64,000 nucleotides of DNA from Rhodospirillales bacterium (GCA_009839325.1 VXPW01000022.1:28038-92037); one strand, 5' to 3'; counted from the first letter of the stretch, positions 2,055 through 48,455 are shown. Notes: generated by a model not told the origin, from the sequence alone. Translations and numbers: made by a program.

Positions 2055-2056
2055 GA

Positions 2057-13612: not shown

Positions 13613-13618
13613 CGCCTC

Positions 13619-15295
13619 CTAGCGTAAAGCCACCTGTGTGACCGCGTCCGGTGCCGGCGGCTCCACCGGCACAGGCGGCACACCAAGAAGTGGCGCCACA
13701 CCGGCCACCACCGAACCCGCGAGCGGAGCCACGTTCCAGCCGGCGGTGGCAAAGCCGTGGGTCCCGGGAGCTGCCTTGGGCTCGTCCAGCAGCACGACGA
13801 CGACGTACCGCGGGGCACTCATCGGAAAAGCCGCTACAAACGAATTCGTCCGGGCGCCAAGCCGGTACCGCCCGTCAACGACCTTCTGCGCGGTTCCCGT
13901 CTTGCCGCCGATTTCGTAGTTGCCGACGTCGGACAGTCCGGCGGTTCCGTGCAGCACGACCTGGCGCAGCAGCATGCGCATCTGCCGTACCGTCGACGGA
14001 CGAAACGCAGCGGTGGAATGCTCCTGCGACCCTGCAAGCAGCAGTCGAGGAGCCCGGTACTGTCCGTCCCCGACGACCGCCGCCACTGCGGCCGCCAGAT
14101 GCATCGGTGAAACCGCAATCCCGTGCCCGAACGAAACGGTGGCGCGCTGGACCTTTCCCCATGCATCGGGCAGGCGCGGATGGGCAGTTCGAAGCCCCGA
14201 TCCGTCAATGTCGCTCAGGAGCCCCAAGCGTCCCAGGTAGTCCCAATGCTGCTCCTTGCCCAATGCTTCGGCCACCCGCACCATCCCGATGTTCGACGAA
14301 TGCACGAATACTTCGGAGAGCCGGAGCCAGCGTTCCTCCGGGTGGTAATCGTTGATGGTGTAGCGACCAATCTTGATCGGCTCCGTAGCATCGAAATTCG
14401 AGTTCACGTTTGCTCTGCCGGCATCCAGCGCTGCGGCAATCGTGAACGTCTTGAAAGTCGACCCCATCTCGAAGACGCCTTGCGTCCCGAGATCCAACAT
14501 TCCCGGATCGTCCGCGACTCGCACATCATTCGGGTCGAAGTCCGGGAGCGAGACCTGGGCGAGAACATCGCCAGAGCCAATCTCGAGCACCACTCCCGCC
14601 GCTGCCACCGCCTGGAATCTCTCCATTGCGGCCTGCAGGCGGTTTCGCAGGACATTCTGAACCCTGATGTCGAGCGTCAGTTGAAGCGGGCCTTTCCGAA
14701 TGGATCGGTCACTGACGCGCTCGACGCCAGCCTGAGGTACGCCGTCTATGTTGACGTAGCCGACCACGTGGGAAGTCAGCCGACCCTGGGGGTACACGCG
14801 ACGCCTTTCCTCCTGGATGTACAGGCCAGGCGAACCGATGCGCATGGCGGCTTCGGCCCGTGAGGGAGGCGCGTGGCGACGAATCCACAGGAACTGCCGG
14901 TCGCGACGCTTGGCAGACGCTAACCGTCGCGCCAACTCGGCCTGATCGAGTTCGGGAAACACCGCCGACAATTCCTCGGCAAGGGTGGCGGGATCCCTGA
15001 CGTCGGAAGGGTTGACCCAGACCGACGGGACCAAGACCGTGGTCGCCAGCATCGTTCCGTGCCGGTCAAAGACTTCGCCCCGGACTGGCGCTTCGTCTGC
15101 CGGGCGCGGCATTTCGGTTTCGGTCTCGCCGGACAGCGCAACTTCGCCGAGGCGGAGCCCAACGACGACGAAGGCAATCGCAATCATCGTCATGCCGGCG
15201 CGCAGCCGTTCTCCCGTTCTCTCTGAGCGGCTTCTTCCGCTCTGCCAGAGACTGACTACGGGTTCGCGGCGATACTTCCGCCAGCGCCGGCTCAC
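13619..15295 (-). CDS. ftsI: Peptidoglycan D,D-transpeptidase FtsI (PBP3)
   Basis: ORF 13619..15295(-). It has an N-terminal TM helix and the transpeptidase motifs STFK (MGSTFKTF), SSN (HSSNIG) and KTGT (GGKTGTAQ). Confidence 0.9.
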   Translation of the reverse strand: MSRRWRKYRREPVVSLWQSGRSRSERTGERLRAGMTMIAIAFVVVGLRLGEVALSGETETEMPRPADEAPVRGEVFDRHGTMLATTVLVPSVWVNPSDVRDPATLAEELSAVFPELDQAELARRLASAKRRDRQFLWIRRHAPPSRAEAAMRIGSPGLYIQEERRRVYPQGRLTSHVVGYVNIDGVPQAGVERVSDRSIRKGPLQLTLDIRVQNVLRNRLQAAMERFQAVAAAGVVLEIGSGDVLAQVSLPDFDPNDVRVADDPGMLDLGTQGVFEMGSTFKTFTIAAALDAGRANVNSNFDATEPIKIGRYTINDYHPEERWLRLSEVFVHSSNIGMVRVAEALGKEQHWDYLGRLGLLSDIDGSGLRTAHPRLPDAWGKVQRATVSFGHGIAVSPMHLAAAVAAVVGDGQYRAPRLLLAGSQEHSTAAFRPSTVRQMRMLLRQVVLHGTAGLSDVGNYEIGGKTGTAQKVVDGRYRLGARTNSFVAAFPMSAPRYVVVVLLDEPKAAPGTHGFATAGWNVAPLAGSVVAGVAPLLGVPPVPVEPPAPDAVTQVALR

Positions 15296-15624
15296 TGCCC
15301 TGTCCTCCCGGGCAATTCGCCTTGCGATATCACCTCGACGAGTCGAGCTGGCGGACTGACCGGTCTCGGTCGGAGATCAAGATGACGTTGGGCCAGATCG
15401 GCCAGTTGCTCCGGCTGGTTCAGACGTGACCACTCCATGGCCAAACGATCCATCCCGGCGCGGAGTTCTTCCTCCTTGGCATGGAGTGCCTCGAGCCGGG
15501 CCTCCCCGGCGCGAAGCTGATGGCGAAGCCAGATGGTGCTGCCGCCAAGCACCATGACCGAGACCATCGACAGGCACAGCCAGAAGCCCATCAGCCGGCC
15601 GACTCGGAACGCCCACGACAGCAT
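15292..15624 (-). CDS. ftsL: Cell division protein FtsL (small bitopic coiled-coil protein)
   Basis: ORF 15292..15624(-). It has one TM helix (FWLCLSMVSVMVLGGSTIW) followed by a coiled coil (EARLEALHAKEEELRAGMDRLAMEW). It sits between rsmH and ftsI and overlaps both neighbours. Confidence 0.7.
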   Translation of the reverse strand: MLSWAFRVGRLMGFWLCLSMVSVMVLGGSTIWLRHQLRAGEARLEALHAKEEELRAGMDRLAMEWSRLNQPEQLADLAQRHLDLRPRPVSPPARLVEVISQGELPGRTGQ

Positions 15625-16562
15625 CAGGCAACCGCCGTAATGACCGGAGCCGAGGTCCTGACCGCGGTCCGCAGCCGTGCCGACCTGGCCCGCGGATTGC
15701 GATGCAGTTCCGCCTGACCTGGCCTAATCGCGCGCGTTCTCGACAACCGGAATGTCGGCTCGAACGGCGCACCGGTGGGAGGAATGTGACGGTGCGCTCG
15801 TGGGGCGCGATTCGACCGTTCCACCATGAAGCGCTTGACCAGTCGGTCCTCAAGCGAATGAAACGCGACGACCGCCAAGATGGCCCCTTCGATAAGTAGC
15901 TGTTCTGCACTGTGCAGTGCCGCACGCAGTTCACCGAGTTCATCGTTCACGGCGATGCGGAGAGCCTGAAAGGTGCGCGTCGCGGGGTCGATCGTTTCCT
16001 GCCTGCCCCGAACCGCCGAGCGCACCACGTCAGCCAGCTCGACCGTGCGAGCAAACGGCCGGTCGGCCACAATCGCGCGCGCAATCCGGCGGGAGTGGCG
16101 TTCTTCGCCAAACGTTCGCAGAATCGCTGCAAGCGCCGATTCGTCCATTGCGTTGACAATGTCGGCGGCCGTCTGCCCGCAGCCGCCCATCCGCATGTCG
16201 AGCGGCCCGTCCCGGCGAAACGAAAACCCGCGCTCCGCATCGTCGAGCTGCGGAGACGATACCCCTAAGTCGAAGACGATCCCGCCGTTGACATGCTCAA
16301 CATCGAGCGAGGCCAGGACCTGATCCACCCCTCCGAAACGCGCCTGCACGAACTGGAATCGGCTGGCGAACCGCTCCCCCAGCGCGGCTGCGGCCGGACG
16401 CGCGGCCGGATCGCGGTCTATGGCAATCACGCGGCAGTCTGCCGCTTCAAGCAGCGCCCGCGCGACGCCGCCGCGCCCGAACGTGGCGTCCACGTAGAGC
16501 GCGTCGTCGACCGGCTGCAGCTGCGTGACGATCTCTGCAAGGAGAACCGGCACGTGGGCCAT
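15624..16562 (-). CDS. rsmH: 16S rRNA (cytosine1402-N4)-methyltransferase
   Basis: ORF 15624..16604(-). Contains HVPVLLAEIV, DATFGRGGVARALL and FHSLEDRLVKRF. The likely start is ATG 16562 (MAHVPVLL). Confidence 0.9.
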   Translation of the reverse strand: MAHVPVLLAEIVTQLQPVDDALYVDATFGRGGVARALLEAADCRVIAIDRDPAARPAAAALGERFASRFQFVQARFGGVDQVLASLDVEHVNGGIVFDLGVSSPQLDDAERGFSFRRDGPLDMRMGGCGQTAADIVNAMDESALAAILRTFGEERHSRRIARAIVADRPFARTVELADVVRSAVRGRQETIDPATRTFQALRIAVNDELGELRAALHSAEQLLIEGAILAVVAFHSLEDRLVKRFMVERSNRAPRAHRHIPPTGAPFEPTFRLSRTRAIRPGQAELHRNPRARSARLRTAVRTSAPVITAVA

Positions 16563-16616
16563 GGTTGGGACGCCATGTTGGAGGGAGGAAAGGCGAGTGC
16601 CCACGTGCCGGCGTTT

Positions 16617-17150
16617 CTAGAGCCCGGACCTGGAGTTGCGGTCGGCAGCCTCGGCCTCAGCCGACGCCTCGGCCAAGAATGGCTGGACCTGGTCCGGATG
16701 AAGGATGTAGAACCGGTCGCCAGCGCCCATCAGGACGGCTTTCGGCGACCGCATGGAGTAACTGCGCGTCTTGGAACTGCCCTCGCCTGAACGGTCAAGG
16801 GCCAGTTCGGCCGCGATCAGCGCTTCGGCGGGCAACTGGACACGGCCTTCGGGATCAATCAGCTGGGCGGTATATGCGTGGAAGTGGTGCAGCCCGAGCA
16901 ACCCGCGCTGCTTCTGGGAAAGCTCAGTGCGGTCAGCCTGCTCAGAGTTGCGACGGCGCAGGTCCGACTGCATCACGCATTCGATGGCGCAGGCCTCTTC
17001 ACCGCTCGCCGTCGACGCGACGAACAGATGGGGAGACTCTTCCGACCGGAACTCCGAGCGCCAACGCGCCGGAATGCTGATCCGCCCCTTCTTGTCAATC
17101 CGGTGCGTAAACGTGCCGGCGAAGAAGGCGCGGTTTCCCACCTCCTGCAT
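16617..17150 (-). CDS. mraZ: Transcriptional regulator MraZ
   Basis: ORF 16617..17165(-). It has two MraZ/SpoVT-AbrB-type half-domains (IDKKGRISIPARWR and IDPEGRVQLPAEAL) and is the first gene of the dcw cluster. The start is ATG 17150 or ATG 17165. Confidence 0.85.
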   Translation of the reverse strand: MQEVGNRAFFAGTFTHRIDKKGRISIPARWRSEFRSEESPHLFVASTASGEEACAIECVMQSDLRRRNSEQADRTELSQKQRGLLGLHHFHAYTAQLIDPEGRVQLPAEALIAAELALDRSGEGSSKTRSYSMRSPKAVLMGAGDRFYILHPDQVQPFLAEASAEAEAADRNSRSGL

Positions 17151-17190
17151 CGCTCGACCCTCCACACGACGACCCAGCAGCGCTGTTCAA

Positions 17191-33021: not shown

Positions 33022-33588
33022 ATGCGTATCAAGGGAAACGAAGCCGGTCCCGGCATGGTGATTGAGCACCTAGGCAGCATCTGGCGCGTGGTACGGAAGC
33101 AGGCAGTCCGGACAGGCAAGGGCGGCGCCTACGCTCAGCTGGAACTGCGCAACCTCGAAAACGGCAGCAAGTTGAACGAGCGGTTTCGCGCGGCGGAAAA
33201 CCTGGAACGGCTGTACATCGAAGGCCGCTCATATCAGTACCTTTTTGGCAACGGGAGCACCGTCACGCTCATGGACACGACAACCTATGACCAGTCGGAG
33301 TTTCCCGCGGCCATGGTCGGTGACGCCCTGCCTTTCTTGCAGGACGGCATGGATGTCACGGTCGAGTACGCGGGCGACAAGCCGGTAGCGATCCGGCTCC
33401 CGGACACGGCGGTAGCGGTAGTCATGGAGACCGAAGCCGTTGTCAAGGGCCAGACCGCCTCGAGTTCATTCAAACCTGCCGTGCTTGACAACGGTGTTCG
33501 GACCATGGTGCCGCCGCACGTGGAAACCGGCACCCGCGTCGTGGTCAACACGCTCGACGGGGCTTACGTAGAACGAGCCAAGTCGTAG
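33022..33588 (+). CDS. efp: Elongation factor P
   Basis: ORF 33022..33588(+), 188 aa. It has the typical EF-P N-terminus and loop (GMVIEHLGSIWRVVRKQAVRTGKGGAYAQLELRNLENG). Confidence 0.95.
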   Translation: MRIKGNEAGPGMVIEHLGSIWRVVRKQAVRTGKGGAYAQLELRNLENGSKLNERFRAAENLERLYIEGRSYQYLFGNGSTVTLMDTTTYDQSEFPAAMVGDALPFLQDGMDVTVEYAGDKPVAIRLPDTAVAVVMETEAVVKGQTASSSFKPAVLDNGVRTMVPPHVETGTRVVVNTLDGAYVERAKS

Positions 33589-33606: not shown

Positions 33607-34407
33607 GTGCCCTACCCGACCGCCATCATCAACGTCATGTCGGGTGCCGCCGAGAAGGCGGCCCGCCCGCTACGCCGTGACTTCGGCGAAATCGAAAATC
33701 TCCAGGTGTCCCTCAAGGGGCCCGACAACTTCGTTACATCCGCGGACATACGAACCCAGGAAATCTTGCACCGCGAACTGTCGCGGGCTCGGCCCGGCTA
33801 CGGTTTCCTCATGGAGGAAGGCCTGGAGGAAGCGGGCGACGGTGAGCACCGGTGGATCGTCGACCCCGTCGACGGAACCCTAAATTTCCTGCGAGGGATA
33901 CCGCACTTCGCGATTTCGATCGCCCTGGAACGAGCGGGCACGATCGTCGGTGCATTCGTACTCGATCCCATCAAGCACGAAGCCTACTGGGCGGAAAAAG
34001 GCCGCGGCGCGTACGTGAACGACCGGCGCCTCCGCATCACGCCGCGCTCCACCCTCGACGGAGCGGTCATCGCACTCGGTCTTCCGCACAGGAGTCGCGG
34101 AGCACATGACCTGCATCTTTCCCGCCAGCGTCGGATCATGCAGAGAGTAGCCGGGCTTCGCCGGTTCGGTGCCGCTGCGCTCGACTTGTGCTACGTGGCT
34201 TCCGGCCGCGTCGACGGGTACTGGGAAACCGGCCTGAACCCTTGGGACATCGCAGGCGGCATGCTGTGTGTGACCGAAGCAGGCGGTTCAGTCGTCGGGC
34301 TGCGCAGGAATTCCTGTCCGCTGATCACGGGAGATGTGGTGGCTGGTACTCCCGACATCGCGATCGCCCTTCAAGACTGCTTGGCGGAGGCTGACCAACA
34401 AGTCTGA
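33607..34407 (+). CDS. suhB: Inositol monophosphatase family protein (SuhB-like)
   Basis: ORF 33607..34407(+), GTG start. IMPase motifs are present (WIVDPVDGTLNFLRGIPHFAISIAL, WDIAGG). Confidence 0.85.
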   Translation: MPYPTAIINVMSGAAEKAARPLRRDFGEIENLQVSLKGPDNFVTSADIRTQEILHRELSRARPGYGFLMEEGLEEAGDGEHRWIVDPVDGTLNFLRGIPHFAISIALERAGTIVGAFVLDPIKHEAYWAEKGRGAYVNDRRLRITPRSTLDGAVIALGLPHRSRGAHDLHLSRQRRIMQRVAGLRRFGAAALDLCYVASGRVDGYWETGLNPWDIAGGMLCVTEAGGSVVGLRRNSCPLITGDVVAGTPDIAIALQDCLAEADQQV

Positions 34408-34767
34408 CGATGACACCAAGCGCGCAGGGGTTCAGGCCGACCGCATCCGCCCCGGAATACCGGGTCGATGGACGTCAGACGGGGGGCCGCGGCGGCGATC
34501 CAGGAAGAGTTGTCTCGCCGCCCCCTCGGCACCGGCCATCAGCGGCGCTTCCATCGGACAAATCATGCCGCCGACAGATCCCGCTCAGCTTGATCTTTCC
34601 AAATTTTTCTGCCATTTCGTCAGGTACTGTTCGCGTTGGACATGCTGGGCCGATCGCGGCCGCGCGCGCCATCTGGCAGCGAGACTGTTGTCCGCCAGAT
34701 GTGTCCCGCCTCATTCGCGGGTCGACCGCTGTCGGGTCGGCCTCAGCCCAACTAGCGGGAATCAACC

Positions 34768-35982
34768 GTGCATAGTCCCCACCGATTCCTGATTCGCATG
34801 GTCGTGTTCGTCGTGGTGTCGGGCGGCCTTGCGTCGCTGCTGCTGCCGACGCTCAGGGAGGCGTTTAACGCCAATCCAGCGCTCAACGGGCTCATTGCAG
34901 GCGTGCTGGTTATCGGAATCGCGTACTCATTTCGCCAGGTCCTGGCGCTGGTTCCTGAAATCCGTTGGCTGGAGCGCTACGCATCCGGCATGAGTGTCAG
35001 CATCGCCAACGCACGGCCGCCAAATCTGCTTGCCCCGATTGCGCGCACGTTTACCGAACAGACCAAGACTTCGCGACCGCTGATCTCTGCGCTCTCGATG
35101 CGCTCGCTGCTTGACCAGGTCAACTTCCGGTTGGACGAGACCCGCGACATTTCCCGCTACATGATCGGGCTGTTGATCTTCCTGGGGTTGTTGGGGACGT
35201 TCTGGGGGCTACTCCAGACGGTGAGCTCGTTCGGCGCCGTCATCGGTAATCTCTCGATCAGTGAAGGCGGAGACGTCGCGTCGATCTTCGGATCATTGAA
35301 GGCGGGGTTGACCGAGCCTCTGGCCGGCATGGGTACTGCGTTCAGTTCGTCGCTGTTCGGACTCGCGGGCTCACTGGTCCTTGGTTTCCTCGACCTGCAG
35401 GTTGCACAGGCGCAGAATCGCTTCTACCTGGATCTTGAAGAGTGGCTTGCTCGCCGGGCGCACGTTTCTGCAGGGAGCGGCAGCGAATTGGAGCTGGGAC
35501 ACACTCCGGTTCCTGTCTACGTGCAGGCGCTGCTAGAGCAAACTGCAGAAAGCATCGATGAACTCCAGAAAGCGCTGGTCAGGGGAGAGAATGAACGTCG
35601 CAACGTCAGCGAGTCGATGTCCTCCATCGCCACCCAGATTGCGGCCCTCGGAGATCAGCTGCGAAGCGATCAATCGTCGGTCGTTCGGCAGATCGAACGC
35701 ATCGCTGACACCGGCGGCAATCTTGACGAGCACTCCTTGGCGCATCTGCGTAGCGTGGATTCCAACCTCAAGCGCCTGGTCGAAGCGAACGCCACCGGTC
35801 AGGAGGCTTTTCTCCAAGGGGTACGCGGCGAAATCAAGCTGCTCGCACGCACCCTGAGTACTTCCGTGCCGGAGTCCAAACCGACCAGGGCTACTTCGAA
35901 AACGACGCGACGCACTTCCTCGCCAGCAGCCAAGCCCGAGTCGAAGTCGCGCAGTACCGATCAGGCGCGGTCCAAGCGCTGA
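34768..35982 (+). CDS. MotA/TolQ/ExbB-family proton-channel protein with long C-terminal cytoplasmic coiled-coil/basic tail
   Basis: ORF 34768..35982(+), 404 aa. It has four predicted TM helices (residues about 8-27, 41-62, 131-152, 186-209). The channel signature is YMIGLLIFLGLLGTFWGLLQTV ... LAGMGTAFSSSLFGLAGSLVLGF. Residues about 210-365 are heptad-like, and the last roughly 40 residues are rich in S/T/K/R. The start is GTG 34768 or ATG 34798. Confidence 0.8.
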   Translation: MHSPHRFLIRMVVFVVVSGGLASLLLPTLREAFNANPALNGLIAGVLVIGIAYSFRQVLALVPEIRWLERYASGMSVSIANARPPNLLAPIARTFTEQTKTSRPLISALSMRSLLDQVNFRLDETRDISRYMIGLLIFLGLLGTFWGLLQTVSSFGAVIGNLSISEGGDVASIFGSLKAGLTEPLAGMGTAFSSSLFGLAGSLVLGFLDLQVAQAQNRFYLDLEEWLARRAHVSAGSGSELELGHTPVPVYVQALLEQTAESIDELQKALVRGENERRNVSESMSSIATQIAALGDQLRSDQSSVVRQIERIADTGGNLDEHSLAHLRSVDSNLKRLVEANATGQEAFLQGVRGEIKLLARTLSTSVPESKPTRATSKTTRRTSSPAAKPESKSRSTDQARSKR

Positions 35983-35991
35983 GCCTGCGGC

Positions 35992-38727
35992 GTGCCAACG
36001 CGACGCCAATCTCCCAACATTTGGCCGGGCTTTGTCGACGGTATCTCGACATTACTGCTCGTCCTCATTTTTCTACTTGCGATCTACGTCCTATCCGAGT
36101 TTGTGCTGGGGTTGCTGCTAAAGGGGCGGGACGCGGAACTGCAGTCTTTGACCTCCCAGATGGACGCGCTCACGGCGCAACTTGCCCGGGAGGAAACCCA
36201 GAACGCCGAATTGTCCGAGAATGTCCTCGATCTCACCCAATCGCTCAATGACTCCAAGGCACAGGTCAGCAATCTGCGCGGAGCGAACGTCCGCCTGAGC
36301 GATGAAGTCAGACTCCTCACCGAGTCGCTTCAGGCCGCTGAAGCCCTCGGGCAAGACCTAGAGACGAGAAACGAACAACTGACTCTCCGGGTCCGCGAAC
36401 TCACGCAGTCGCTCGCGGCAGCCGAAACCCTCGCGGCAAACCGACGGGCCCAGAATGACGCCCTCGCGGCAGATGTCCGACGACTCACGCAGCTGGTACA
36501 GGAAACCGAGACGCTCGCTGCAGATCTGAAGAGCCAGAACGATTCGCTTTCCGAAGATGTGACGCAACTCACGCAGAAATTGGCGACCGCGCAGACCCGC
36601 GGCGATGACCTCCAGGCCCGGAATCAGGCCCTCGACACCGACGTTCAGCGGCTGACACAGGACCTGGCGACAGCGCACACCCGCGGCAATGACCTCCAGG
36701 CCCGGAATCGGGCCCTCGATGCCGACGTTCAGCGATTGACGCAAGACCTCGCGACGGCCCAGACCAGGGGCGATGACCTTCAGACCCGGGGCGAGACTCT
36801 CGATGCGCAGGTCCGACAGCTCACACAGGAACTGGCGGCGGCGCGGACGCGCGGCGACGAACTGCAGACAGAAAGCGATTCGCTCGATGCCGAAGTCCGG
36901 CGGTTGGCACAAGCGCTACTGAGCGCCGAGACCCGTGGTGACGACCTTCAGGACCAGAACGAAGCCCTTGTTGCGGACGTTCGGCAGCTCGCACAGTCAC
37001 TTGAAGTGGCCGAAACCCGCGGCAGCGAACTTCGGGACGAGAACGAGGGGCTCAACGCCAATATCCGGCAGTTGACCGCTGCGCTGGCAGCAGCACAGGA
37101 CCACGGCGACGAGTTGCAGAACACAAACGAGCTGCTGGCTCGCGACATCGAGCAACTTCGGCGCGCCCTGGAAACGGCCAACACGCACGGCGAGGACCTG
37201 CAGGCGCGGAATCAATCACTCGAGGACAACGTCAGGGAGCTTACGGAGGCTTTCGCCGCGGCCGAGACCCGCGGCAACGACCTGCAAGCAGAAAACGAAG
37301 ACCTCCACGCCAGCATCCAGAGACTGGCGCAGGCTCTGGCCGCAGCGGAAACTCGCGGCGACGATCTCCAGACGGAAAACGAAGGCCTCAATGCCGACAT
37401 CACACGTCTGTCGCAGGCCCTCGCCGCCGCGGAGACCCGTGGCAATGACCTGCAGGCCGCGAATGAAACTCTCGACATCGACATCCAGCGGTTGTCGCGC
37501 GCTCTGGCCGAAACCCGGAGTCGCGGAGACGAGCTCCGGACCCAGAACGAATCGCTGTCCGCCGAACTTCTGGAACTCACGCGGGCACTTGAGATTGCAG
37601 AGGCTCGCAGCAGTGAACTTGGGGCCGAGAACGATGTGCTGAGTGCAGATTTTCAGGAACTCACGCTCTCGCTCGAGGCCGCCGAAGCCCTGGGATTGGA
37701 CCTCCAGACGACGAACGAGCAATTGACCACCGACCTCCAGCAACTTACCCGGGAACTTGAAGAAGCGGGCACCTTGGAAGCCGGCTTGCAGACACGTAAC
37801 CGGGACCTGTCATCCGAGGTCAGGACGCTGCGGCGGTCGCTCGGGGAGGCGCAGGCACAGGAATCAGAACTGAAGGACGAAATCGAACGGCTGCGTGGCA
37901 GCGAGCGGGCACTTCGTGCGAACCTCAGCCGCGTTCGGTCTTCGGAGCAGGGCCTGTCTGACCAAGCCCGAAATCTGGAACTCGACAAGGAACAGCTGGA
38001 AGAACGACTGGCCGAACTCGCGGCGGCGGCGGCAGCAGCCCGAACCGACCTGCTGCAGACGGAAGCAGACCTGGAACAGGAGCGCGCGCTTTCAGTAGCA
38101 GCAAGGGAGCAAGCGACCTTGCTGAACCGCCAGCTGGCCGACGTACGCGCCAGACTGGATGAACTCGGACGGCTTCTGGACGCAGCCGAGGCCGACCGGG
38201 AAGCCAAGGGAATCCAGATTGTCGAACTCGGCAAACGCCTCAATGCCGCCCTAGCCACCCGGGTCAGTGAGCTGGCACGCTACCGGTCCGAGTTCTTCGG
38301 TCGCCTCCGCGACATCCTTGGCGATCGGTCGGATGTGAGGACCGTAGGCGATCGCTTCATCTTTCAGTCCGAAGTGTTGTTCGCCAGCGGTTCCGCGGAA
38401 ATCGGGTCGAACGGTCGGCGCGAAATCACCGAGGTCTCGGACGCGTTGAAGGTCCTCGCCGAGGAAATTCCGGACGACGTACCCTGGGTTCTTCAAATCG
38501 AGGGACATACCGACACTGACCCGATTGCCACCGACCAATTCCCCTCCAATTGGGAGTTGTCCGTCGCACGGGCCACTGCGGTCGCCCGTATCCTCCTCGA
38601 CAACGGGATGCCTCCCGAGAGGCTCTCGATTGCGGGTTTCGCGGAATTCCAACCGATTGATCCGGGAACCAATCCGGCGGCACTCCGTCGTAACCGACGG
38701 ATCGAACTCAAACTTACTAGGCCGTGA
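35992..38727 (+). CDS. MotB/OmpA-family peptidoglycan-anchored protein with giant periplasmic coiled-coil repeat region
   Basis: ORF 35992..38727(+), 911 aa, with a GTG start 9 nt after the upstream stop. The N-terminus is a MotB/TolR-type TM helix with an embedded Asp (NIWPGFVDGISTLLLVLIFLL). Residues 53-668 are 28-residue repeats. The C-terminal OmpA_C-like domain contains VLFASGSAEI, IEGHTDTDPI, NWELSVARA and NRRIELKL. Confidence 0.8.
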   Translation: MPTRRQSPNIWPGFVDGISTLLLVLIFLLAIYVLSEFVLGLLLKGRDAELQSLTSQMDALTAQLAREETQNAELSENVLDLTQSLNDSKAQVSNLRGANVRLSDEVRLLTESLQAAEALGQDLETRNEQLTLRVRELTQSLAAAETLAANRRAQNDALAADVRRLTQLVQETETLAADLKSQNDSLSEDVTQLTQKLATAQTRGDDLQARNQALDTDVQRLTQDLATAHTRGNDLQARNRALDADVQRLTQDLATAQTRGDDLQTRGETLDAQVRQLTQELAAARTRGDELQTESDSLDAEVRRLAQALLSAETRGDDLQDQNEALVADVRQLAQSLEVAETRGSELRDENEGLNANIRQLTAALAAAQDHGDELQNTNELLARDIEQLRRALETANTHGEDLQARNQSLEDNVRELTEAFAAAETRGNDLQAENEDLHASIQRLAQALAAAETRGDDLQTENEGLNADITRLSQALAAAETRGNDLQAANETLDIDIQRLSRALAETRSRGDELRTQNESLSAELLELTRALEIAEARSSELGAENDVLSADFQELTLSLEAAEALGLDLQTTNEQLTTDLQQLTRELEEAGTLEAGLQTRNRDLSSEVRTLRRSLGEAQAQESELKDEIERLRGSERALRANLSRVRSSEQGLSDQARNLELDKEQLEERLAELAAAAAAARTDLLQTEADLEQERALSVAAREQATLLNRQLADVRARLDELGRLLDAAEADREAKGIQIVELGKRLNAALATRVSELARYRSEFFGRLRDILGDRSDVRTVGDRFIFQSEVLFASGSAEIGSNGRREITEVSDALKVLAEEIPDDVPWVLQIEGHTDTDPIATDQFPSNWELSVARATAVARILLDNGMPPERLSIAGFAEFQPIDPGTNPAALRRNRRIELKLTRP
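36148..37995 (+). repeat. In-frame tandem array of about 22 x 84 bp (28-residue) repeats inside the MotB/OmpA-like gene
   Basis: I split the protein by hand into 22 consecutive 28-residue units starting at L53, with no indels. I checked the phase at nucleotide level for units starting at 36568, 37324 and 37744. The approximate consensus is L-T/A-Q-x-L-A-x-A-E-T-R-G-D/N-D-L-Q-x-x-N-E-x-L-x-A-D-V/I-Q/R-R. Confidence 0.85.
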
Positions 38728-38911: not shown

Positions 38912-40444
38912 ATGCAAGACGTTCTACGAACTCTCCAGAAGAAACGCCGCGACGCCCACTTGGGCGGCGGCACGGCGCGCATTAAGAAGCAGCACGCCAA
39001 GGGAAAGCTAACCGCGCGGGAACGTCTCTCCGCGCTCCTGGATCCGGGATCATTCGAGGAATTCGATATGTTTGTCGAGCACCGAAGCGGTGATTTCGGC
39101 ATGCAGCGGCAAACCATCCCCGGTGACGGAGTCGTCACCGGTTGGGGCGAAATCGGAGCTCGCCCGGTGTTTGTGTTCAGCCAGGACTTCACTGTGTTCG
39201 GCGGATCACTGTCGGAGGCCCATGCAGAGAAAATCTGCAAAGTCATGGATCAGGCCATGAAGGTAGGAGCGCCGATAATTGGTCTGAATGATTCCGGGGG
39301 AGCGCGGATCCAGGAAGGCGTCGCATCGCTCGGCGGCTACGCCGAGGTGTTTCAACGAAACGTACTGGCCTCAGGCGTCATCCCGCAGATTTCGGTGATC
39401 ATGGGTCCCTGCGCGGGCGGCGCCGTCTATTCGCCGGCGATGACCGACTTCATCTGCATGGTGCGCGACACAAGCTACATGTTCGTCACCGGACCAGACG
39501 TCGTGAAGACCGTGATTCAAGAGGAGGTCTCACACGAGGAACTCGGCGGCGCGCGAACCCACACTGCAACGTCAGGTGTCGCGGATCTCGCTTTCGACAA
39601 CGATCTCGAAACCCTCACGCAAATACGGCGCCTGTTCCATTTCCTGCCGCTCTCGAATCGTGACCAGGTGCCGGTCCGCGAGACCGCAGATCCTGCTGAT
39701 CGCATGGAGCCCTCTCTGGACTCGCTGGTCCCCGTGCATCCCAACAAGCCGTACGACATGCGGGAGGTTCTGGAGAAAGTCCTGGACGAGGGCGATTTCT
39801 TTGAAATCCAACCCGACTTCGCCGGCAACATCTTGATCGGCTTTGGCCGAGTCGAGGGACGGACGGTAGGAGTGGTAGCCAACCAACCGATGGAACTCGC
39901 AGGCTGTCTCGACATTAACTCGAGCCGGAAGGCCGCTCGTTTCGTGCGGTTCTGCGACTGCTTCCACATTCCCATCGTGACCTTCGTCGATGTGCCCGGC
40001 TTCCTGCCCGGAACTGACCAGGAGTACGGCGGCTTGATCAAGCATGGGGCCAAGCTTCTGTTTGCCTATGCAGAAACCACTTCCCCGAAAATCACCGTGA
40101 TCACGCGCAAGGCGTACGGGGGGGCCTATGACGTGATGGCGTCTAAGCATCTTCGAGGCGATATCAACCTGGCCTGGCCGACTGCAGAAATTGCCGTCAT
40201 GGGACCAAAGGGCGCGGTGGAAATTATCTTCCGGGGGGACATCGGCGACCCCGAAAAAATCCAGCAGCGCACCGACGACTATCGCCGCAAATTCGCGAAC
40301 CCGTTCGTGGCAGCCAGTCGGGGCTACATCGATGACATTATTCTCCCGCGCGAGACCCGGACCCGCATTGCCCGTTCGCTGAAAATGCTCCGCAACAAGC
40401 AGCTGACGAATCCATCAAAGAAACACGGAAACATCCCGTTGTGA
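38912..40444 (+). CDS. pccB: Propionyl-CoA carboxylase beta chain (carboxyltransferase)
   Basis: ORF 38912..40444(+), 510 aa. It has the typical acyl-CoA carboxylase CT N-terminus ([22 protein letters not shown]) and contains [10 protein letters not shown] and [12 protein letters not shown]. Confidence 0.9.
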
Positions 40445-42438
40445 AGCCTCGACGGCGGACCCGGCCGTTCCGGAAGGTCCTGATCGCCAATCGGGGCGAA
40501 ATCGCGTGTCGGATCATCCGGACATGTCGGCGGATGCGAATTAGGACCGTCGCCGTATTTTCTGAGGCCGACCGGGGCGCCCTCCACGCGGAAACTGCCG
40601 ATGAAGCGGTTGCGATCGGTCCCGCACCGGCGAGCCAGAGCTATCTTCGCTTCGCGTCAATCCTGCAAGCTGCCCACGCGACCAAGGCCGATGCCATCCA
40701 TCCCGGATACGGCTTCTTGTCAGAGAATGCGGCATTTGCCCACGCGGTCGAAGAAGCCGGCCTTACCTTTGTCGGTCCGCCCGCAGATGCCATTGAAATC
40801 ATGGGCGACAAGCTGGCCGCAAAGGAACTGGCCGCAAAGGCTGGTGTGAATGTCGTGCCGGGCCACAGCAGACCCGCGGCAACCGCCCTTGAGGCAGCTG
40901 CCATGGCCGACGGTATCGGCTACCCCGTCATGCTGAAGGCTGCCGCAGGCGGCGGTGGCAAGGGAATGCGCATCGCGGGCAGCGACGCGGACGTCCGGGA
41001 ATTGTTTCCACTGGCATCGGGCGAGGCCAAGTCAAGTTTCGGTGACGCACGGGTATTCGTCGAACGCTACTTCCCAAATCCCCGCCACATTGAAGTGCAA
41101 GTTCTCGCTGACGCGCACGGGCAATGTATCTCGCTCGGTGAACGCGAGTGCTCCATCCAGCGCCGCCATCAGAAGGTTTTCGAAGAAGCTCCGGCACCTC
41201 GATTCGAACCCGAAGCTCGTCGACGAATGGAGCAACAGGCTATCGCACTGGCCAAAGCGGTCGGGTACCGCTCAGCCGGCACCGTCGAGTTCATTGTCGA
41301 TTCGGAAGGGGAGTTCCATTTTCTTGAGATGAACACCCGCCTGCAGGTCGAACATCCGGTGACCGAGCAGGTCACGGGCGTTGACCTCGTGGAGGAGATG
41401 CTGCGGGTCGCGGCGGGCGAACCGCTTCGCCTGCGCCAGCAGGACGTCCCACGCAGTGCGGGATGGGCCATCGAAGCCAGGGTTTACGCGGAGGATGCCG
41501 AACGCGGCTTCGTGCCATCTGTCGGCCGAATTCGACGTCTGACGACACCGCCGACGCTGGCCGGAAACGGAGTTCGCATCGATACAGGGGTGGTCGAGGG
41601 TTCAGAAATCACCCCGCACTACGACCCCATGATCGCCAAGGTGATTACCTACGGCAAAGACCGGCAGACTGCAGTGCGTTCAATGCAAGCAGCGTTGGAC
41701 GGGTTCTACATTCGAGGTCCCCGAACAAACGTAACCTTTCTCGCTGGCGTGGCCCGAACTGAGAGATTCGAGCAAGGGAGACTCGATACAGGATTTCTCG
41801 ATGCCGAGTACCCCGACGGCTACCGACCGCCCCTCCCCGAAGGAGAGACCAGAGACGCACTGATCGCAGCGGCCGCGTTCGTCCAGCGGGTCGAGGAATC
41901 TCGGGTAGGAACGCCAGCGGAGCGGCAGGCATGGCGAGCCGTCGTCATGCTGGGAGAAGAAGCTGTCCCCTGCACGGTCCGTGCCGCCGATGGCGGATGC
42001 GACGTGGAAGTCGGCGATCGGCAATTGGCGGTGAGAAGTACGTGGCGTCCCGGCCAAGCCGTGCTTCACGGCCGCGTGAACGCGAGGCCGGTGGTCATCC
42101 AGATCGATCCGGCGGTGGAGGGATGGACGTTCACTCATGCCGGCGTGACGACCAGGACCTTGGTCCGGACTCCCGAAATTGCCGCACTCGCCATCCATAT
42201 GCCAAAGAAGGCTCTGCCGGATCACTCAAATCGGTTGTGCAGCCCCATGCCTGGCCTGGTGATTTCGATTGCAGTGGCAGAGGGCGATGAGGTACGGGCA
42301 GGCCAGGTGATCGCTGTGGTAGAGGCAATGAAGGCGGAGAATCAACTTCGGGCAGAGCGCGACGGCGTTATCCGGAAAATCAGCGTGAAGGCGGGCGACA
42401 ATATCACCGCTGAAGAGGTGATCGCGGAATTCGCTTGA
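40441..42438 (+). CDS. pccA: Propionyl-CoA carboxylase alpha chain (biotin carboxylase plus BCCP)
   Basis: ORF 40441..42438(+), 665 aa, with a GTGA overlap with the pccB stop. It begins [17 protein letters not shown], has an ATP-grasp region, and has the C-terminal biotinyl-lysine motif VVEAMKAEN. Confidence 0.9.
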
Positions 42439-43342: not shown

Positions 43343-43806
43343 GGCGCAGCCCCCCGACGGCATCTGGTCGCCATAGTGCAGCGAAGCCGTGTTCTACCTC
43401 TTGAGTCTACGCTGGGCGCCGTCATCAGCACCTAGCACGCGAAATCACCGTTGTACACTGCGCACCAGCGCTCACGGTACAGGCCCTGCGTTCGCAAGCG
43501 GCTTCTCCGTGTCCTCCGAATTGACGCGATCGTCAGCGACCCCGTCAGGCTCTGCCGGCCGTCTTGAGCAACAGGATCCACCAACCGAATTGAATGCGCG
43601 TCGGAGAGCGGCACGTCGAAGGTGCGGTACGGCTCGCCTCCCTTCCGCCGTACGCCGGCCGGGCGCTGTTCCCGTCGTTGTGGACACCCTACTTTTCTTT
43701 TATCGTACTGATTGCTCGGTCGAGTCCCTTGATGTGGCGGCTGGTTTCGTACACCTGTTCGTCCGAATTCTCGACGGCTGCCTCATCTGTTATTTGGAAC
43801 ACAGTA

Positions 43807-44358
43807 ATGCATCGGCCTATCCAAATTCTTGCGGCCCTCGGCACAGCGCTGGCACTTTCGGCCTGCGGCAGCCCCCCCGAACAAGAGCCCACCGCCGAAC
43901 CGGCGGAGGTCGTCGAGGGGACCGGCCTCGCCGACATCACCGCCGGGGGTATCGACGTCGAAACGGATGAAACCGCGGGGGTAACGCAATTGACCCCCGC
44001 TGAGCAAGCCGAAGTCGACCTGATTGATGCTGGTGACCGAGTCTATTTTGACTACGACAAGAGTTCCTTTGGTCCCGAGGGTGAGGTAATCCTTCGTGCG
44101 CAGAGCGAACTCCTGCAGGGTGCTCCGGATGTGACCGTGACGATCGAGGGGCATTGTGATGAACGCGGCACCCGGGAATACAACATTGCGCTTGGCGAAC
44201 GTCGTGCCGAGGCCGTCAAGACCTATCTGGTATCGCTCGGAGTGGAGGCGACCCGAATTTCGACGATCTCCTATGGCAAGGAGCGACCGGAAGTCGAGGG
44301 CCACAATGAACAGGCTTGGCGCCAAAACCGGGTGGCAATCACAGTAATCAATCCGTGA
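43807..44358 (+). CDS. pal: Peptidoglycan-associated lipoprotein Pal
   Basis: ORF 43594..44358(+), trimmed to ATG 43807. It has the lipobox LALSAC (MHRPIQILAALGTALALSACGS). The OmpA_C domain contains VYFDYDKSSF, IEGHCDERGTREYNIALGERRA and NRVAITV. Confidence 0.9.
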   Translation: MHRPIQILAALGTALALSACGSPPEQEPTAEPAEVVEGTGLADITAGGIDVETDETAGVTQLTPAEQAEVDLIDAGDRVYFDYDKSSFGPEGEVILRAQSELLQGAPDVTVTIEGHCDERGTREYNIALGERRAEAVKTYLVSLGVEATRISTISYGKERPEVEGHNEQAWRQNRVAITVINP

Positions 44359-45183: not shown

Positions 45184-46542
45184 GTGACGACGGCTTCCAC
45201 GCCGGTAACTCCCGCAGAATTTCGGCGCCTCGCGGCAGAGGCCGGCCTCTCGCACGACCGGTGCAGTTCGCTCGCCATCGGCGTTTCCGGTGGTACCGAC
45301 AGCATGGCGCTTGCCAACTTGTTGGCGGAATGGGCGGGCGGACGCCGCGGATCCATTACCGCACTGACCGTGGACCACCGCCTTCGCCAAGAGTCCACCT
45401 CCGAGGCCGCCACAGTTTCGCGGTGGATCCAAGACATGGGAATGCAGCACGAGATTCTGGTGTGGCATCACGGGAATATTACGCGCGGGATACAGGCCGC
45501 GGCGCGGGCAGCACGTTTTCGATTGATGGGTGCCTGGTGCATGCGCGTTGGGGTCGCCAATCTATTGCTGGCGCATCATCTCGAGGACCAGGCTGAAACG
45601 TTTCTCATGCGTCTGGCGGCAGGAAGCGGCATCGCTGGGCTCGGGTGCATGCGCGTGCGCGCCCCTATGGCAACAGTCGAACTCGTACGACCGTTGCTTG
45701 GAATTCCGAAGTCCCGCCTGCGCGCAACCCTGGCGCGCAGCGGAGGCAACTTCGTGGAGGACCCATCCAACCAGGATCTCCGGTACACCCGGACCCGGCT
45801 TCGCAGGCTCCTGCTTCATCCCGCTTCCGACCTCCCTAAGCCGGCCACACTGGCCCGTGCGACCCGGACGTTCAGACGACTGGACGCGCTCGCCGAACGC
45901 GCGACTGCAGCCCGACTGCGCGATTCGATGCAGGTGTCACCTCTGGGTTTCGTGACGATCGACCTCGGGCCATTCACTGCCCTTCCCGACCTGCTAGCGC
46001 TTCGATGCATTGCTGCAGTCATGCAGGCCGTAGCGGGCCGGGATTATCCGCCACGTACCCGGTCGCTTCGGCGGGTCCTCGAGCGCATTCACAATCAAGA
46101 GCTTTGCACATCGACGCTTGGGGGAACTGTCCTCTCGGTGACCGCGAGACGGCTCGCTTTCACCCGTGAAGTCCGGGCTGTCTCCAATCCTGCCCGTCTC
46201 CGGTCTCCGAAGCTGCTATGGGACAATCGCTTCCAGATTGAAACCGATTTCCCGGCCGACGATCTCATCGTCGGCGCTCTTGGAACGCAGGATCTGCGCA
46301 AGCTTCCCGTCCCGCTGCCCGGCCCCGCCGTGCGCCGTGATCATCTTGCTACACTGCCGGCATTCCGTGATCTTGACGGACTGGTTGCTGTGCCCCACCT
46401 AAATTGGTGGCGGGACAACCGTCTCCGCACAAGAATACGGGTCGTTTTCGAACCCCGGTCCGGCCTGTTGGCCGCCGTATCGTCGTTGCCGGGGAACAGG
46501 GACGGGACCGGTCGGAACACCGGCTGCCGAGGACACGCATGA
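45184..46542 (+). CDS. tilS: tRNA(Ile)-lysidine synthetase
   Basis: ORF 45103..46542(+). It has the PP-loop motif [16 protein letters not shown]. The likely start is GTG 45184, just after the cpoB stop. There is an ATGA overlap with the ftsH start. Confidence 0.85.
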
Positions 46543-48455
46543 ACGGTTTTGCCCGCAACCTAGCCCTATGGATTGTGATCGGCTTGGTCGTCGTGACCGC
46601 CTACAACCTGTTCAACAGCAGCACCCAGCAGAATGCTGCCGAGATCGACTACTCGACGTTCGTCGAGAACGTGGAAACAGGTCAGGTCAAGTCCATCACT
46701 GTCAGCGGCCGCGTGATCGATGGTCTTTACCGGAATGGCCAGCGTTTCACGACATACGGCCTTGACGACGCCAGCCTGCTCCCGCTGTTGCGTGAACACG
46801 ACGTCGCCGTGCGGGCAGCGCCGGAGGAGAGCAGCGTTTCGCCCGTAGTCGGCCTGCTGCTCAACTGGTTGCCGATGCTGCTGTTCATCGGCATCTGGAT
46901 CTTCTTTATGCGCCAGATGCAATCCGGCAATGGCAAGGCATTCGGATTCGGAAAATCAAGAGCGCGCCTCCTGACCGAGAACCAGCAGCGCGTGACCTTC
47001 GATAACGTCGCGGGTGTCGACGAGGCGAAGGAAGAGCTGCAAGAAATCGTGGAGTTCCTGAAGAGCCCCCAAAAGTTCCAGCGGCTGGGCGGTTCCATTC
47101 CCAAGGGCGTGCTGCTCGTGGGCCCGCCGGGGACGGGTAAGACGCTGCTTGCCCGCGCCGTCGCGGGTGAGGCGAACGTGCCCTTCTTCACGATCTCCGG
47201 CTCAGACTTCGTCGAGATGTTCGTCGGCGTCGGGGCCAGCAGGGTCCGCGACATGTTCGGACAGGCGAAGAAGAACGCCCCGTGCATCGTGTTTGTGGAC
47301 GAAATCGATGCCGTTGGAAGGCAACGCGGAGCCGGTCTTGGCGGCGGCAACGACGAACGTGAGCAGACCCTCAACCAACTGCTGGTCGAGATGGACGGTT
47401 TTGAAGCCAACGAAGGCGTCATCATGATCGCGGCGACCAACCGGCCTGACGTCCTCGACCCGGCGCTGCTGCGTCCCGGCCGCTTCGATCGCCAGGTCGT
47501 GGTCTCCAATCCGGACATCGTCGGCCGCGAAAAGATCCTCCGCGTGCACATGCGCAAAGTTCCGGTTGGAAACGACGTCAACATCCGGACCATCGCGCGC
47601 GGAACCCCCGGTTTCTCCGGCGCGGATCTCGCAAATCTCGTCAACGAAGCTGCGCTGCTTGCCGCCCGAAAGGGCCGCCGCTCCGTCGGCATGGCCGAAT
47701 TCGAACAGGCGAAAGACAAGGTCATGATGGGCGCCGAGCGACGCTCGATGGTGATGACGGAAGACGAGCGAAAGATGACCGCGTATCACGAATCCGGACA
47801 CGCAATCGTGATGCTGAACGTCGAAGGCCACGAGCCCCTTCACAAGGTCACCATCATTCCGCGCGGCCGTGCACTCGGAGTCACCATGTGGCTGCCGGAA
47901 CGCGACAAGTACGCGCACACGCAAATCGAACTTGAAGCACAAATCGCCGGCCTGTTTGGCGGCCGCATTGCCGAGGAACTCATCTACGGCAAGCGTCACA
48001 TCACCACCGGCGCCGGCAACGATATCCAGCAGGCCACCAATTTGGCGCGCCGCATGGTGATGGAATTCGGCTTCAGCGATCGACTCGGTCCGATCCGTCT
48101 GCAAAGCAACCAGGAAGAAGTGTTCCTCGGGCACTCCGTAGCCGAACAGCGCAACATGTCGGATCAGACCGCTCGCATGATCGACGAAGAAATTCGGAGA
48201 ATCGTCGAGGACGGAGAAAGCACCGCTCGGAAAATTCTTGAAGCCCGCGTGGACCAGCTTCACGCCTTGGCCGGCAGCCTACTGGAGTACGAAACGTTGA
48301 CGGCAGACGAGGTCGATGCAGTGTTGGTCGGGCGGTCCATCCACCGCGAAGACGACGAAGGGGCGGCGCCGGAAACCGGCCGACGTTCATCGGTCCCGCA
48401 GAGCGGTGCGTCGCACGATCAGGGCGACGGCACGGCGCAGCCGGAGAACGCATGA
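46539..48455 (+). CDS. ftsH: ATP-dependent zinc metalloprotease FtsH
   Basis: ORF 46404..48455(+), trimmed to ATG 46539 ([19 protein letters not shown]). Walker A is [11 protein letters not shown], the SRH region is present, and the zinc site is HESGHAIV. Confidence 0.95.

Follow-up and report, generated by a model that had tools for sequence, protein, structure and literature searches.

A MotA/ExbB/ZorA-type channel subunit and a MotB-like partner with a repeat-built, predicted coiled-coil stalk in a Rhodospirillales bacterium and its close relatives

Two adjacent genes, here called A and B, lie on the plus strand of a 64,000-nucleotide (nt) stretch of DNA from a Rhodospirillales bacterium (GCA_009839325.1, VXPW01000022.1:28038-92037), which we refer to as the window and whose positions are counted from its first nucleotide. 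Gene A (34768..35982; GTG start, 404 amino acids [aa]) encodes a channel subunit of the MotA/ExbB/ZorA type, and gene B (35992..38727; GTG start, 911 aa) encodes a MotB-like subunit anchored to peptidoglycan (PG). By fold and by motif, the pair was found to belong to the 5:2 motor superfamily, and relative to the known systems it is a variant of these motors. We believe that it probably constitutes a proton motor that is neither flagellar, nor of the Tol/Ton kind, nor Zorya, with a dimeric coiled coil, evolvable in length, as its tether to the wall. A first-pass annotation of this DNA, made from the sequence alone, had presented the pair as an orphan and one of a kind, but it is in fact a member of a large and vertically conserved alphaproteobacterial family that is already catalogued in NCBIfam (as PRK09039/NF006543), mislabelled and lightly studied, a pair from Komagataeibacter hansenii having been over-expressed, disrupted and tagged with GFP. 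What is apparently new, and undescribed, is the quantized expansion of the B stalk in the clade to which the window belongs.

A channel subunit and its peptidoglycan-binding partner

Direct reading placed the TGA stop of A at 35980-35982, followed by a 9-nt spacer and the GTG of B at 35992, and the GAC codon of B Asp16 at 36037-36039; the first-pass annotation had all of these positions exactly, and every peptide that it quoted is present. All features described below are on the plus strand unless noted otherwise. Hydropathy analysis revealed four hydrophobic segments in A (residues ~8-26, 37-60, 128-149 and 195-213), and the clustering of basic residues at the N terminus, in the 59-128 loop and in the tail points to a MotA-like topology with four transmembrane (TM) helices and the N terminus inside, which bears out the four helices originally predicted. 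The first two segments form a TM1-TM2 hairpin (34789..34947), assigned from hydropathy and loop charges and matched by AlphaFold2 (AF2) helices at residues 5-24 and 37-72. The channel helices TM3 and TM4, together with the periplasmic loop between them, occupy 35149..35406 and are supported by conservation among 42 sampled sequences of the family. TM3 carries GLLGTFWGL, with Thr144 encoded at 35197-35199, and TM4 runs from P184 into GMGTAFSSSLFGLAGSL, with Ser195 encoded at 35350-35352. Among the 42 sequences, there is no variation at G140, G143, T144, W146, G147, P184, M188, F192 or G198, conservation is at least 90% for both S193 and S195, and the TM4 pattern as a whole, P184-x3-M-x3-F-S-S-S-L-F-G-L, is invariant or nearly so. 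We take the TM3 segment to resemble the G-T-x-W-G motif of ExbB and TolQ.

The last TM helix is followed by a cytoplasmic helical tail (residues ~214-365; 35407..35862), recognized both in AF2 helices and in the family alignment, which spans A residues 1-365 and leaves ~150 structured residues to the tail. The tail ends in a conserved E-I/L-R-x-E-I-R/K-L-L-A-R-T motif, and the match of the PADLOC ZorA1 model to A reaches into it as far as residue 309. The cytoplasmic tail that had been proposed for A was thus recovered as a conserved helical element. Beyond it lies a basic, low-complexity extension (residues 366-404; 35863..35979), where the predicted local distance difference test score (pLDDT) falls below 50 and which is absent from most aligned homologues. 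This extension is disordered and rich in Ser, Thr, Lys, Arg and Pro; it occurs only in the clade of the window and is longer in the relative P0014.

The sequence family nearest to A proved to be ZorA. The PADLOC ZorA1 model matched window A with an E value of 1.2e-12, ZorA1 and ZorA3 both match the channel region, and these ZorA hidden Markov models (HMMs) matched all 42 sampled members (best E = 4e-16). The NCBIfam ZorA models gave far weaker scores with window A (ZorA1, 16.3 bits against a cutoff of 750; ZorA_4, 16.3 against 500), and even family-wide their best E values were only ~1e-7. NCBIfam holds no model for A itself; its MotA models matched none of the 42 sequences, and the tolQ model matched one. 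Searches of PDB sequences were too weak to place A: phmmer with a single channel-core sequence found nothing, and channel-core profiles returned coiled-coil noise and weak matches to ZorA and ExbB, one of which (E = 0.41) aligned T144 and S195 with a Thr and a Ser of the inner helices of Shewanella ZorA (8vvn_C). A fold search was needed for this reason. The AF2 model of A, built on the 42-sequence alignment, has a mean pLDDT of 82.4 and is all helical (residues 5-24, 37-72, 108-161, 170-236, 250-314 and 321-365), with the disordered basic end thereafter. When it was compared with the PDB by Foldseek, as the first-pass annotation had suggested, ranks 1 to 49 were chains of ExbB, TolQ and ZorA, with a probability of 1.0. 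ExbB and TolQ were the top matches by E value, while the best superposition was with Shewanella ZorA 8vvn_D (TM-score 0.55, root mean square deviation 4.6 Å, 20% identity).

B begins with Arg-rich residues and a W-P-G-F-V-D motif that leads into its only hydrophobic segment (residues 21-39 by hydropathy); the motif and this TM helix together map to 36022..36108. Among 78 orthologues, W11, V15, D16 and F27 are conserved in 100% and P12 and G13 in 98%, the motif varying as W-P-G-F/W/Y-V-D. At the other end, a pre-OmpA linker (38227..38376) in which many positions are 90 to 100% conserved in the 78 sequences (N-x-A-L-A-x-K/R-V-x-E-L-x-R-Y-R-S-E-F-F-G-R-L-R ... G-D-R-F-V-F-Q-S-E-V-L-F) precedes an OmpA/MotB-type PG-binding domain (residues 796-902; 38377..38697; Pfam OmpA PF00691, E = 8.6e-16). 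Of the solved sequences, MotS, MotB and PomB have the PG-binding domains nearest to the C-terminal 200 residues (E = 3e-16 or weaker). The invariance of Asp16 and the identity of the PG-binding end uphold the stator-type anatomy first proposed for the pair, namely, an A channel and a B subunit with an invariant Asp in a single TM helix and a MotB-type PG anchor.

B falls within the NCBIfam family NF006543 (PRK09039.1-2, "peptidoglycan-binding protein"), which it matches over residues 612-909 with 382.4 bits against a cutoff of 305, and lies below the equivalog cutoffs of MotB (NF005831; 68.1 against 301 bits), MotD (101 against 283) and MotS (84 against 264). Its best match in a defence library was ZorB3, and its weak matches to crescentin, myosin and SMC rod profiles were all below cutoff. 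Taken together, the MotA and tolQ counts for A and the MotB score of B make it unlikely that the pair is the ordinary flagellar stator of this organism or a TolQR/ExbBD orthologue, the two identities with which the first-pass annotation had contrasted it.

A stalk composed of 28-residue units

Between its TM helix and the pre-OmpA linker, B shows a single unbroken heptad pattern, and residues ~46-745 (36127..38226) are predicted to form an all-helical periplasmic stalk, based on this pattern and on AF2. The full-length AF2 model, computed from the single sequence with no alignment, was all helix over residues 12-776 with a pLDDT of 57.9 and speaks to helicity only. Within the stalk lies an array of 21 in-register units of 28 residues, or 84 nt (residues 74-661; 36211..37974; TRF period 84), with the consensus L-x-x-D-V-x-x-L-T-Q-x-L-A-x-A-x-T-R-G-D-D-L-Q-x-x-N-x-x. 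No indel occurs across the 21 units, and identity at a lag of 28 residues is 0.44, compared with ~0.15 at other lags. The four heptad d positions of the unit are Leu (100%), Leu (100%), Ala (81%) and Leu (95%); the a positions are Val/Ile (81%; 95% with Leu and Phe), Leu (90%; 100% with Val and Phe), Gly (67%) and Asn (81%). An Asn at an a position once per unit is a classic mark of a parallel, in-register, two-stranded coiled coil, and its recurrence every 28 residues in B fits a B2 dimer. Minus-strand open reading frames (ORFs) that run antisense inside B (e.g., 36358-36912 and 37216-37743) failed a filter on GC content at the third codon position and were set aside as by-products of the GC-rich repeat.

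The first-pass annotation had regarded a coil of more than 650 residues as a hallmark of B. Such a coil is indeed present here, but it is specific to the clade and not a trait of the family, B being 323 to 614 aa long (median, 397) in 77 other loci. In the clade of the window, defined by an A at least 76% identical and by the same pccBA downstream, the B proteins of five close relatives are 771, 855, 911, 939 and 1023 aa long, all of which equal 15 + 28n and correspond to 27, 30, 32, 33 and 36 units' worth of 28 residues (the loci besides the window being L085, 7195-10014; L086, 7225-10296; L087, 7251-9566; and L092, 7161-9728). The 1023-aa B of L086 contains ten identical consecutive units (LDAEVAQLTEALADAEARGGDLQTRNRT), which indicates that this amplification was recent. 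Judging from these sequences, the array is actively growing and shrinking in whole four-heptad steps. The next outgroup, with an A 59% identical and the same pntAB-efp-suhB synteny, has a short B of ~330 to 370 aa, with a break in the N-terminal reading frame of the assembled sequence. At L091 (7126-8241), the nearest outgroup locus with a short stalk, the called B (327 aa) begins past the TM helix and a stop or frameshift cuts off the W-P-G-F-V-D region, which may reflect an assembly error or a pseudogene.

Family-wide, a stalk of at least ~110 residues is universal and the maximum exceeds 800. A B protein from a Rhodobacteraceae metagenome-assembled genome (MAG; locus L089) has a stalk of more than 700 residues that is not composed of 28-residue units, which means that long stalks have evolved on more than one occasion. 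With a rise of 0.148 nm per residue, the ~700 stalk residues of window B would extend for ~100 nm if straight, about 10 times the membrane-to-wall distance, and even the shortest family stalk of ~110 residues would reach 16 nm, still more than the ~9 nm that separates PG from the inner membrane (PMC11946911). Being longer than this distance, the stalk must run along the wall, bend or fold back, and cannot simply cross the periplasm. The anchoring dimers of rotary motors are coiled coils, and the torque needed to uncoil four heptads, 30 to 40 pN nm, is about the maximum torque of the motor (Rieu et al., PMC9389320). One speculative possibility is that changing the number of four-heptad modules would alter the torsional compliance and the reach of the tether while leaving its register undisturbed.

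An alphaproteobacterial family and its genomic setting

A set of 5.8 billion proteins contained at least 8000 relatives of A, nearly all of 350 to 440 aa and aligning over their full length; in a library clustered at 50% identity, the count was 514 clusters at E ≤ 1e-30, rising to 1551 at E ≤ 1e-10. When one genome per species was scanned, more than 600 matches to A were obtained, the best 80 of which were used to compare neighbourhoods. These 80 loci come from Rhodospirillales in the broad sense, Acetobacteraceae, Kiloniellales, Kordiimonas and many MAGs, and the groups that carry the family include Azospirillum, Magnetospira, acetic acid bacteria, marine Rhodospirillales and Rhodobacteraceae. 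B, which we identified in the loci by its N-terminal motif and its OmpA end, immediately follows A in 73 of the 74 loci with enough sequence, at a median gap of ~23 nt. Of 57 loci, 45 have a same-strand suhB upstream, and 43 have efp. A tabulation of neighbourhoods and B lengths of this kind had been proposed in the first-pass annotation, and its outcome is that Rhodospirillales, Acetobacteraceae, Kiloniellales, Kordiimonadales and Rhodobacteraceae carry the A-B module as a chromosomal housekeeping unit that is passed on vertically, usually arranged as efp-suhB-(secreted OmpA-like gene)-A-B.

The gene in parentheses bears on a further claim, that the pair has no partner genes, which does not hold for many of the relatives. 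At least 34 loci have a third gene between suhB and A (e.g., L001, 7163-7948), the product of which is secreted or lipoprotein-like (it has a signal peptide or lipobox), with a Pro-rich or acidic linker and an OmpA-like C terminus. This gene is probably an accessory of the A-B system. It is absent from the window, where a 360-nt gap (34408-34767) separates suhB from A, and from the close relatives of the window, that is, from the clade with the giant B stalk. A search of this gap for a remnant, by tblastn with 43 third-gene ORFs, matched only the unrelated pal-like gene at 44041-44283.

The neighbourhood is different in L089 (4790-8129; GCA_003504475.1), where the pair lies among a ChaC-like gene, DUF2125 and a peptide ABC transporter; its A is 35% identical over the full length, tail included, and its B has IWPGFVD. 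The L089 B gene contains a run of N in the assembly and was called as two pieces. When residues 1-152 of B served as the query, most matches were short fragments; they again showed the motif in Rhodobacteraceae. As to names, NCBI labels the A family "flagellar motor protein MotA" (P0001, P0033, P0042 and P0058 are among the entries that we checked). None of the 42 members is matched by an NCBIfam MotA model, and misannotation of the family appears to be systematic. One entry is called "DNA repair protein RecN," and some JGI entries are called "CII-binding regulator HflD." We found no characterization of the A-B family in the literature on PRK09039, on Rgs growth-zone proteins and on MotAB-like pairs of Alphaproteobacteria, and neither a paper on Zorya modularity nor a review of 5:2 motors (PMC9389320) mentions orphan or housekeeping ZorAB-like pairs.

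Nevertheless, one member has been the subject of experiments. Jacek et al. (2019) reported that the only "motility-like" genes of the nonflagellated K. hansenii are motA, encoding 348 aa with four TM helices, and motB, encoding 321 aa with one TM helix and an OmpA domain (PMC6570709). The primers published in that study encode VTRPTTY, EFRLTDR-stop, AITVVK and QPLDNG, and these match an Acetobacteraceae locus of our set, L083, at the A N terminus (MTRPTTY), the B C terminus (ELRLTDR-stop) and two internal B peptides, which identifies the K. hansenii "MotA/MotB" as a member of the A-B family. When motA/motB were over-expressed, cells became longer, colonies spread threefold more widely, and the cellulose, obtained in higher yield, had looser and thicker fibers; each GFP fusion showed polar localization, which was bipolar in long cells (PMC6570709). 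Conversely, disruption of motA/motB led to denser cellulose (PMC7347698). In the authors' view, the pair stands nearer to MotAB than to ExbBD or TolQR, and they likened the elongation and filamentation to the effect of tolQR over-expression in E. coli (PMC6570709).

In the window, the pair is flanked upstream by efp (33022-33588) and suhB (33607-34407) and downstream by pccB (38912-40444) and pccA (40441-42438), and the 64-kb context is made up of housekeeping genes (the dcw cluster, pntAB, efp, suhB, pccBA, pal and ftsH), with a gloB-like gene and a gene of the phytanoyl-CoA-dioxygenase (PhyH) family farther out. The flanks and the housekeeping setting are as first annotated. No flagellar Pfam domain was found in 30 further ORFs that were scanned in the window or in the neighbours of A and B, and the scanned parts of the window contained nothing resembling tolA/tolB, tonB, gliding or Zorya effector genes. 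The dcw cluster (1-17165, minus strand; mraW, ftsI, murE, murF, mraY, ftsW, murC, murB, ddl and ftsA) lies ~18 kb upstream of the pair; murD and murG were not recovered by our crude ORF picker in the gaps where they are expected (8315-9673 and 6079-7167). A few kilobases downstream, a Pal-like OmpA lipoprotein gene (43594-44358) and ftsH (46404-48455) follow the usual pal...ftsH order, with no tolQ-tolR-tolA-tolB ahead of pal in the window, where pccBA and the PhyH-family gene occupy that place. At the right end of the window, two adjoining and unrelated minus-strand genes encode VWA-domain (62306-63301) and TPR-repeat (61464-62321) proteins.

The window and L085 share a well-conserved noncoding region directly upstream of A (34555..34767), which is partly conserved in L086 and L087 and includes TTGATTTTTCC...TTTTTCTGCCATTTCGTCAGG. 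It remains conserved in L086 even though efp-suhB has been lost there, and it may be a dedicated promoter or 5' leader. An Rfam search of the gap upstream of A gave no match and thus no known RNA element, no consensus sigma-70 site was found in the leader, and a promoter and terminator scan was uninformative, its scores being at or below the shuffle expectation. In L086 (955-4207) and L092 (1-648), the efp-suhB block has given way to transposase genes plus a gene encoding a DruA (Druantia) Pfam domain, together in L092 with an extracytoplasmic function (ECF) sigma factor and a VWA protein; the ~200-nt noncoding leader ahead of A is kept in both, despite this replacement.

Proposed mechanism, rival readings and relation to known 5:2 motors

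We propose that A and B would form an inner-membrane, proton-driven A5B2 rotary unit of the kind represented by MotAB, ExbBD, TolQR and ZorAB without being any of those four. By homology, protons from the periplasm would reach the invariant Asp16 on each B helix and travel through a polar filter composed of A Thr144 (TM3) and Ser193/Ser195 (TM4), and their passage would drive the A pentamer to step around the B dimer. B would be held in the wall by its MotB/MotS-type PG-binding domain at the end of a parallel two-stranded coiled coil, and the A tail (~214-365) would be the likely output, as in ZorA. In the clade of the window, the stalk would be no spacer across the periplasm but a long leash or a soft torsion spring. 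Based on the K. hansenii data, our best guess as to function is an envelope-, pole- or division-linked role.

Several points weigh against this proposal. The Pfam MotA_ExbB model (PF01618) scores 19.9 bits with A, below its gathering score of 22.9, so the "channel signature" of the first-pass annotation holds by the ZorA HMMs and the fold but not by Pfam. PDB sequence searches with the A channel core were, moreover, not significant on their own. The A5B2 stoichiometry, the ion flux and the rotation are deduced by analogy for every member of the family, and the presumed continuity of the coil follows from the heptad pattern only, the B model being of low confidence. One fixed geometry is hard to square with stalk lengths that range from ~110 to more than 800 residues. 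The K. hansenii results come mostly from over-expression in an applied setting in which neither the Asp nor the proton motive force (PMF) was probed (PMC6570709). Finally, a third gene that is present in many relatives and absent here means that the composition of the system is not fully understood.

The cell elongation brings to mind a different machine, an energizer of the Tol-Pal or Ton type with periplasmic output, in which a PMF-driven A ring would pull or twist the B coil, as a stand-in for TolA, and so act on the wall or outer membrane of growing and dividing cells, the A tail being only regulatory. The elongated or filamentous cells recall those obtained with tolQR in E. coli, and the polar localization in K. 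hansenii points the same way, as do the periplasmic coil being the fastest-evolving part, the secreted Pal-like OmpA-domain protein that many relatives' operons add and the pal-like gene 5 kb downstream in the window, with tolQRAB not beside it. However, B ends in a MotB-type PG anchor and not in a TolA/TonB C-terminal domain, the conserved ~150-residue tail of A has no equivalent in TolQ or ExbB, and A has four TM helices rather than three, with the tolQ model matching a single one of the 42 family members. The periplasm is, in addition, ~25 to 30 nm wide, and a 100-nm coil cannot span it. On balance, we consider an energizer of this type unlikely, albeit worth bearing in mind. An ordinary or auxiliary flagellar stator, which is what the NCBI name implies, would account for the four TM helices of A, the MotB/MotS-like PG domain, the MotAB verdict of the K. 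hansenii authors and the wider colony spreading upon over-expression. Against it stand the failure of every NCBIfam MotA model, the B scores far under the MotB, MotS and MotD cutoffs, the lack of flagellar genes in the scanned parts of the window, the retention of the pair in nonflagellated Komagataeibacter and the long coiled coil in place of the short linker and plug of MotB. Carriers that have flagella, such as Azospirillum, also possess separate flagellar stators, and we give this identity almost no credence.

It could also be argued that the pair is an antiphage sentinel like Zorya, in which the motor senses perturbation of the envelope and the A tail signals to effectors encoded elsewhere. 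ZorA is, after all, the nearest sequence family for all of the sampled A proteins, ZorB3 is the best defence-library match for B, and A subunits with tails are otherwise a hallmark of Zorya (PMC11946911); rapid change of repeat number in an envelope-exposed part could reflect an arms race, and two relatives have a DruA-family gene and transposases just upstream of A. Yet no gene resembling ZorC, ZorD, ZorE, ZorF or ZorG adjoins A-B in the window or in the 80 related loci, the NCBIfam ZorA models score 16 bits against cutoffs of 500 to 750, and the tail has ~150 to 190 residues compared with ~500 in ZorA. The conserved housekeeping position across several orders is the opposite of what is seen for patchy, island-borne defence systems, and the pair is kept in K. 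hansenii, where its phenotypes are unrelated to phage. A defence role therefore strikes us as improbable. Nor do we favor the notion, to which we assign a very low likelihood, that there is no motor at all and that B is a wall-bound, cytoskeleton-like coiled coil of the periplasm, with A as a mere membrane partner or degenerate channel. The coil dominates B and changes length freely, the weak rod-profile matches to crescentin, myosin and SMC are suggestive, and many carriers are spirilla. But those matches represent generic coiled-coil similarity, all of it below cutoff, and the family also occurs in rod-shaped Acetobacteraceae; above all, Asp16 of B and the Thr/Ser/Pro/Gly pattern of the A channel are invariant across deep divergence, which argues for a working ion path.

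To return to the wall-tethered, non-flagellar motor that we favor, a stronger form of this proposal would make it a fifth functional class of 5:2 proton motors, namely, a vertically inherited housekeeping sister of ZorAB, located at the poles of many Alphaproteobacteria and tethered by a coiled-coil torsion spring or leash whose length is tuned in exact four-heptad units. We offer this only tentatively, as a possible reading that may well claim too much. The known jobs of 5:2 motors are flagellar rotation, gliding, Ton-dependent uptake, Tol-Pal constriction and Zorya immunity, and the A-B pair defines a further large family, possibly a fifth kind of motor that has been systematically mislabelled "flagellar MotA." It is the nearest cellular relative of ZorA found in this analysis and so bears on the origin of Zorya. 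Were the fifth-class reading true, Zorya would have been recruited from a cellular envelope machine, and selection could act on tether length as a mechanical parameter of a rotary motor. Quantized stalk length among near-identical genomes amounts to a natural experiment on tether length in a rotary membrane motor, and the K. hansenii pair is already a handle for the engineering of bacterial cellulose.

Among the catalogued proteins, B aligns with the C-terminal ~300 positions of all five models of the NCBIfam PRK09039 group (NF006542 to NF006546). Those models are 342 to 350 aa long, with one of 627 aa, whereas window B has ~560 extra repeat residues, and the group name, "peptidoglycan-binding protein," is silent on the motor context and on the A partner. 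With TolQR-TolA and ExbBD-TonB, the pair shares the fold of A and a long periplasmic helical element coupled to a 5:2 motor. However, while TolA and TonB supply this element as a separate long helix, in the A-B family it is within B itself. Moreover, ExbD and TolR have a periplasmic fold of their own and work with a three-TM, ~230-aa A subunit, whereas here there is an OmpA/MotB end and an A subunit of 404 aa with four hydrophobic segments and a long tail. The K. hansenii MotA/MotB pair agrees with the window pair in gene order, in the four TM helices of A and in the single TM helix and OmpA domain of B, but its proteins (348 and 321 aa) represent the short form, compared with 911 aa for window B; all of the experimental data on the family come from that pair.

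The flagellar and related stators (MotAB, PomAB and MotPS) resemble A-B in the four-TM topology of A with its cytoplasmic TM2-TM3 loop, in the A-then-B operon with a tiny gap and in the position of the B Asp near the cytoplasmic end of the TM helix, and it is the PG-binding domains of MotS, MotB and PomB that are most similar to that of B. The pair differs from them in its HMM scores (no MotA match for A and B under the MotB cutoffs), in its lack of a flagellar neighbourhood and in its occurrence in nonflagellated bacteria, as well as in the long coiled-coil stalk that replaces the plug and linker and the extra conserved C-terminal tail of A.

The closest comparison is with ZorAB of type I and III Zorya (8qyd from E. 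coli and 8vvn from Shewanella), which provides both the nearest sequence family and the best structural superposition for A. In E. coli, ZorA Thr147 and Ser184 form an ion filter beside ZorB Asp26, and the ZorA tail comprises residues ~223-729, that is, ~500 residues extending over 70 nm (PMC11946911). Like ZorAB, the A-B pair may place a TM Thr and a TM Ser beside an invariant B Asp, although the alignment on the A side is weak, and it likewise combines a cytoplasmic helical tail on A with a B subunit that has a PG-binding end and lacks a MotB-type plug. The two differ in that ZorA has three TM helices and a ~500-residue tail, compared with four TM segments and ~150 structured tail residues in window A, and in that ZorB has a short periplasmic linker where the B proteins of the A-B family have a coil of 110 to more than 800 residues. 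They also differ in genomic habit; while Zorya is found in defence islands with its ZorC/D/E/F/G partners, the A-B pair stands without such partners and is inherited in synteny with housekeeping genes.

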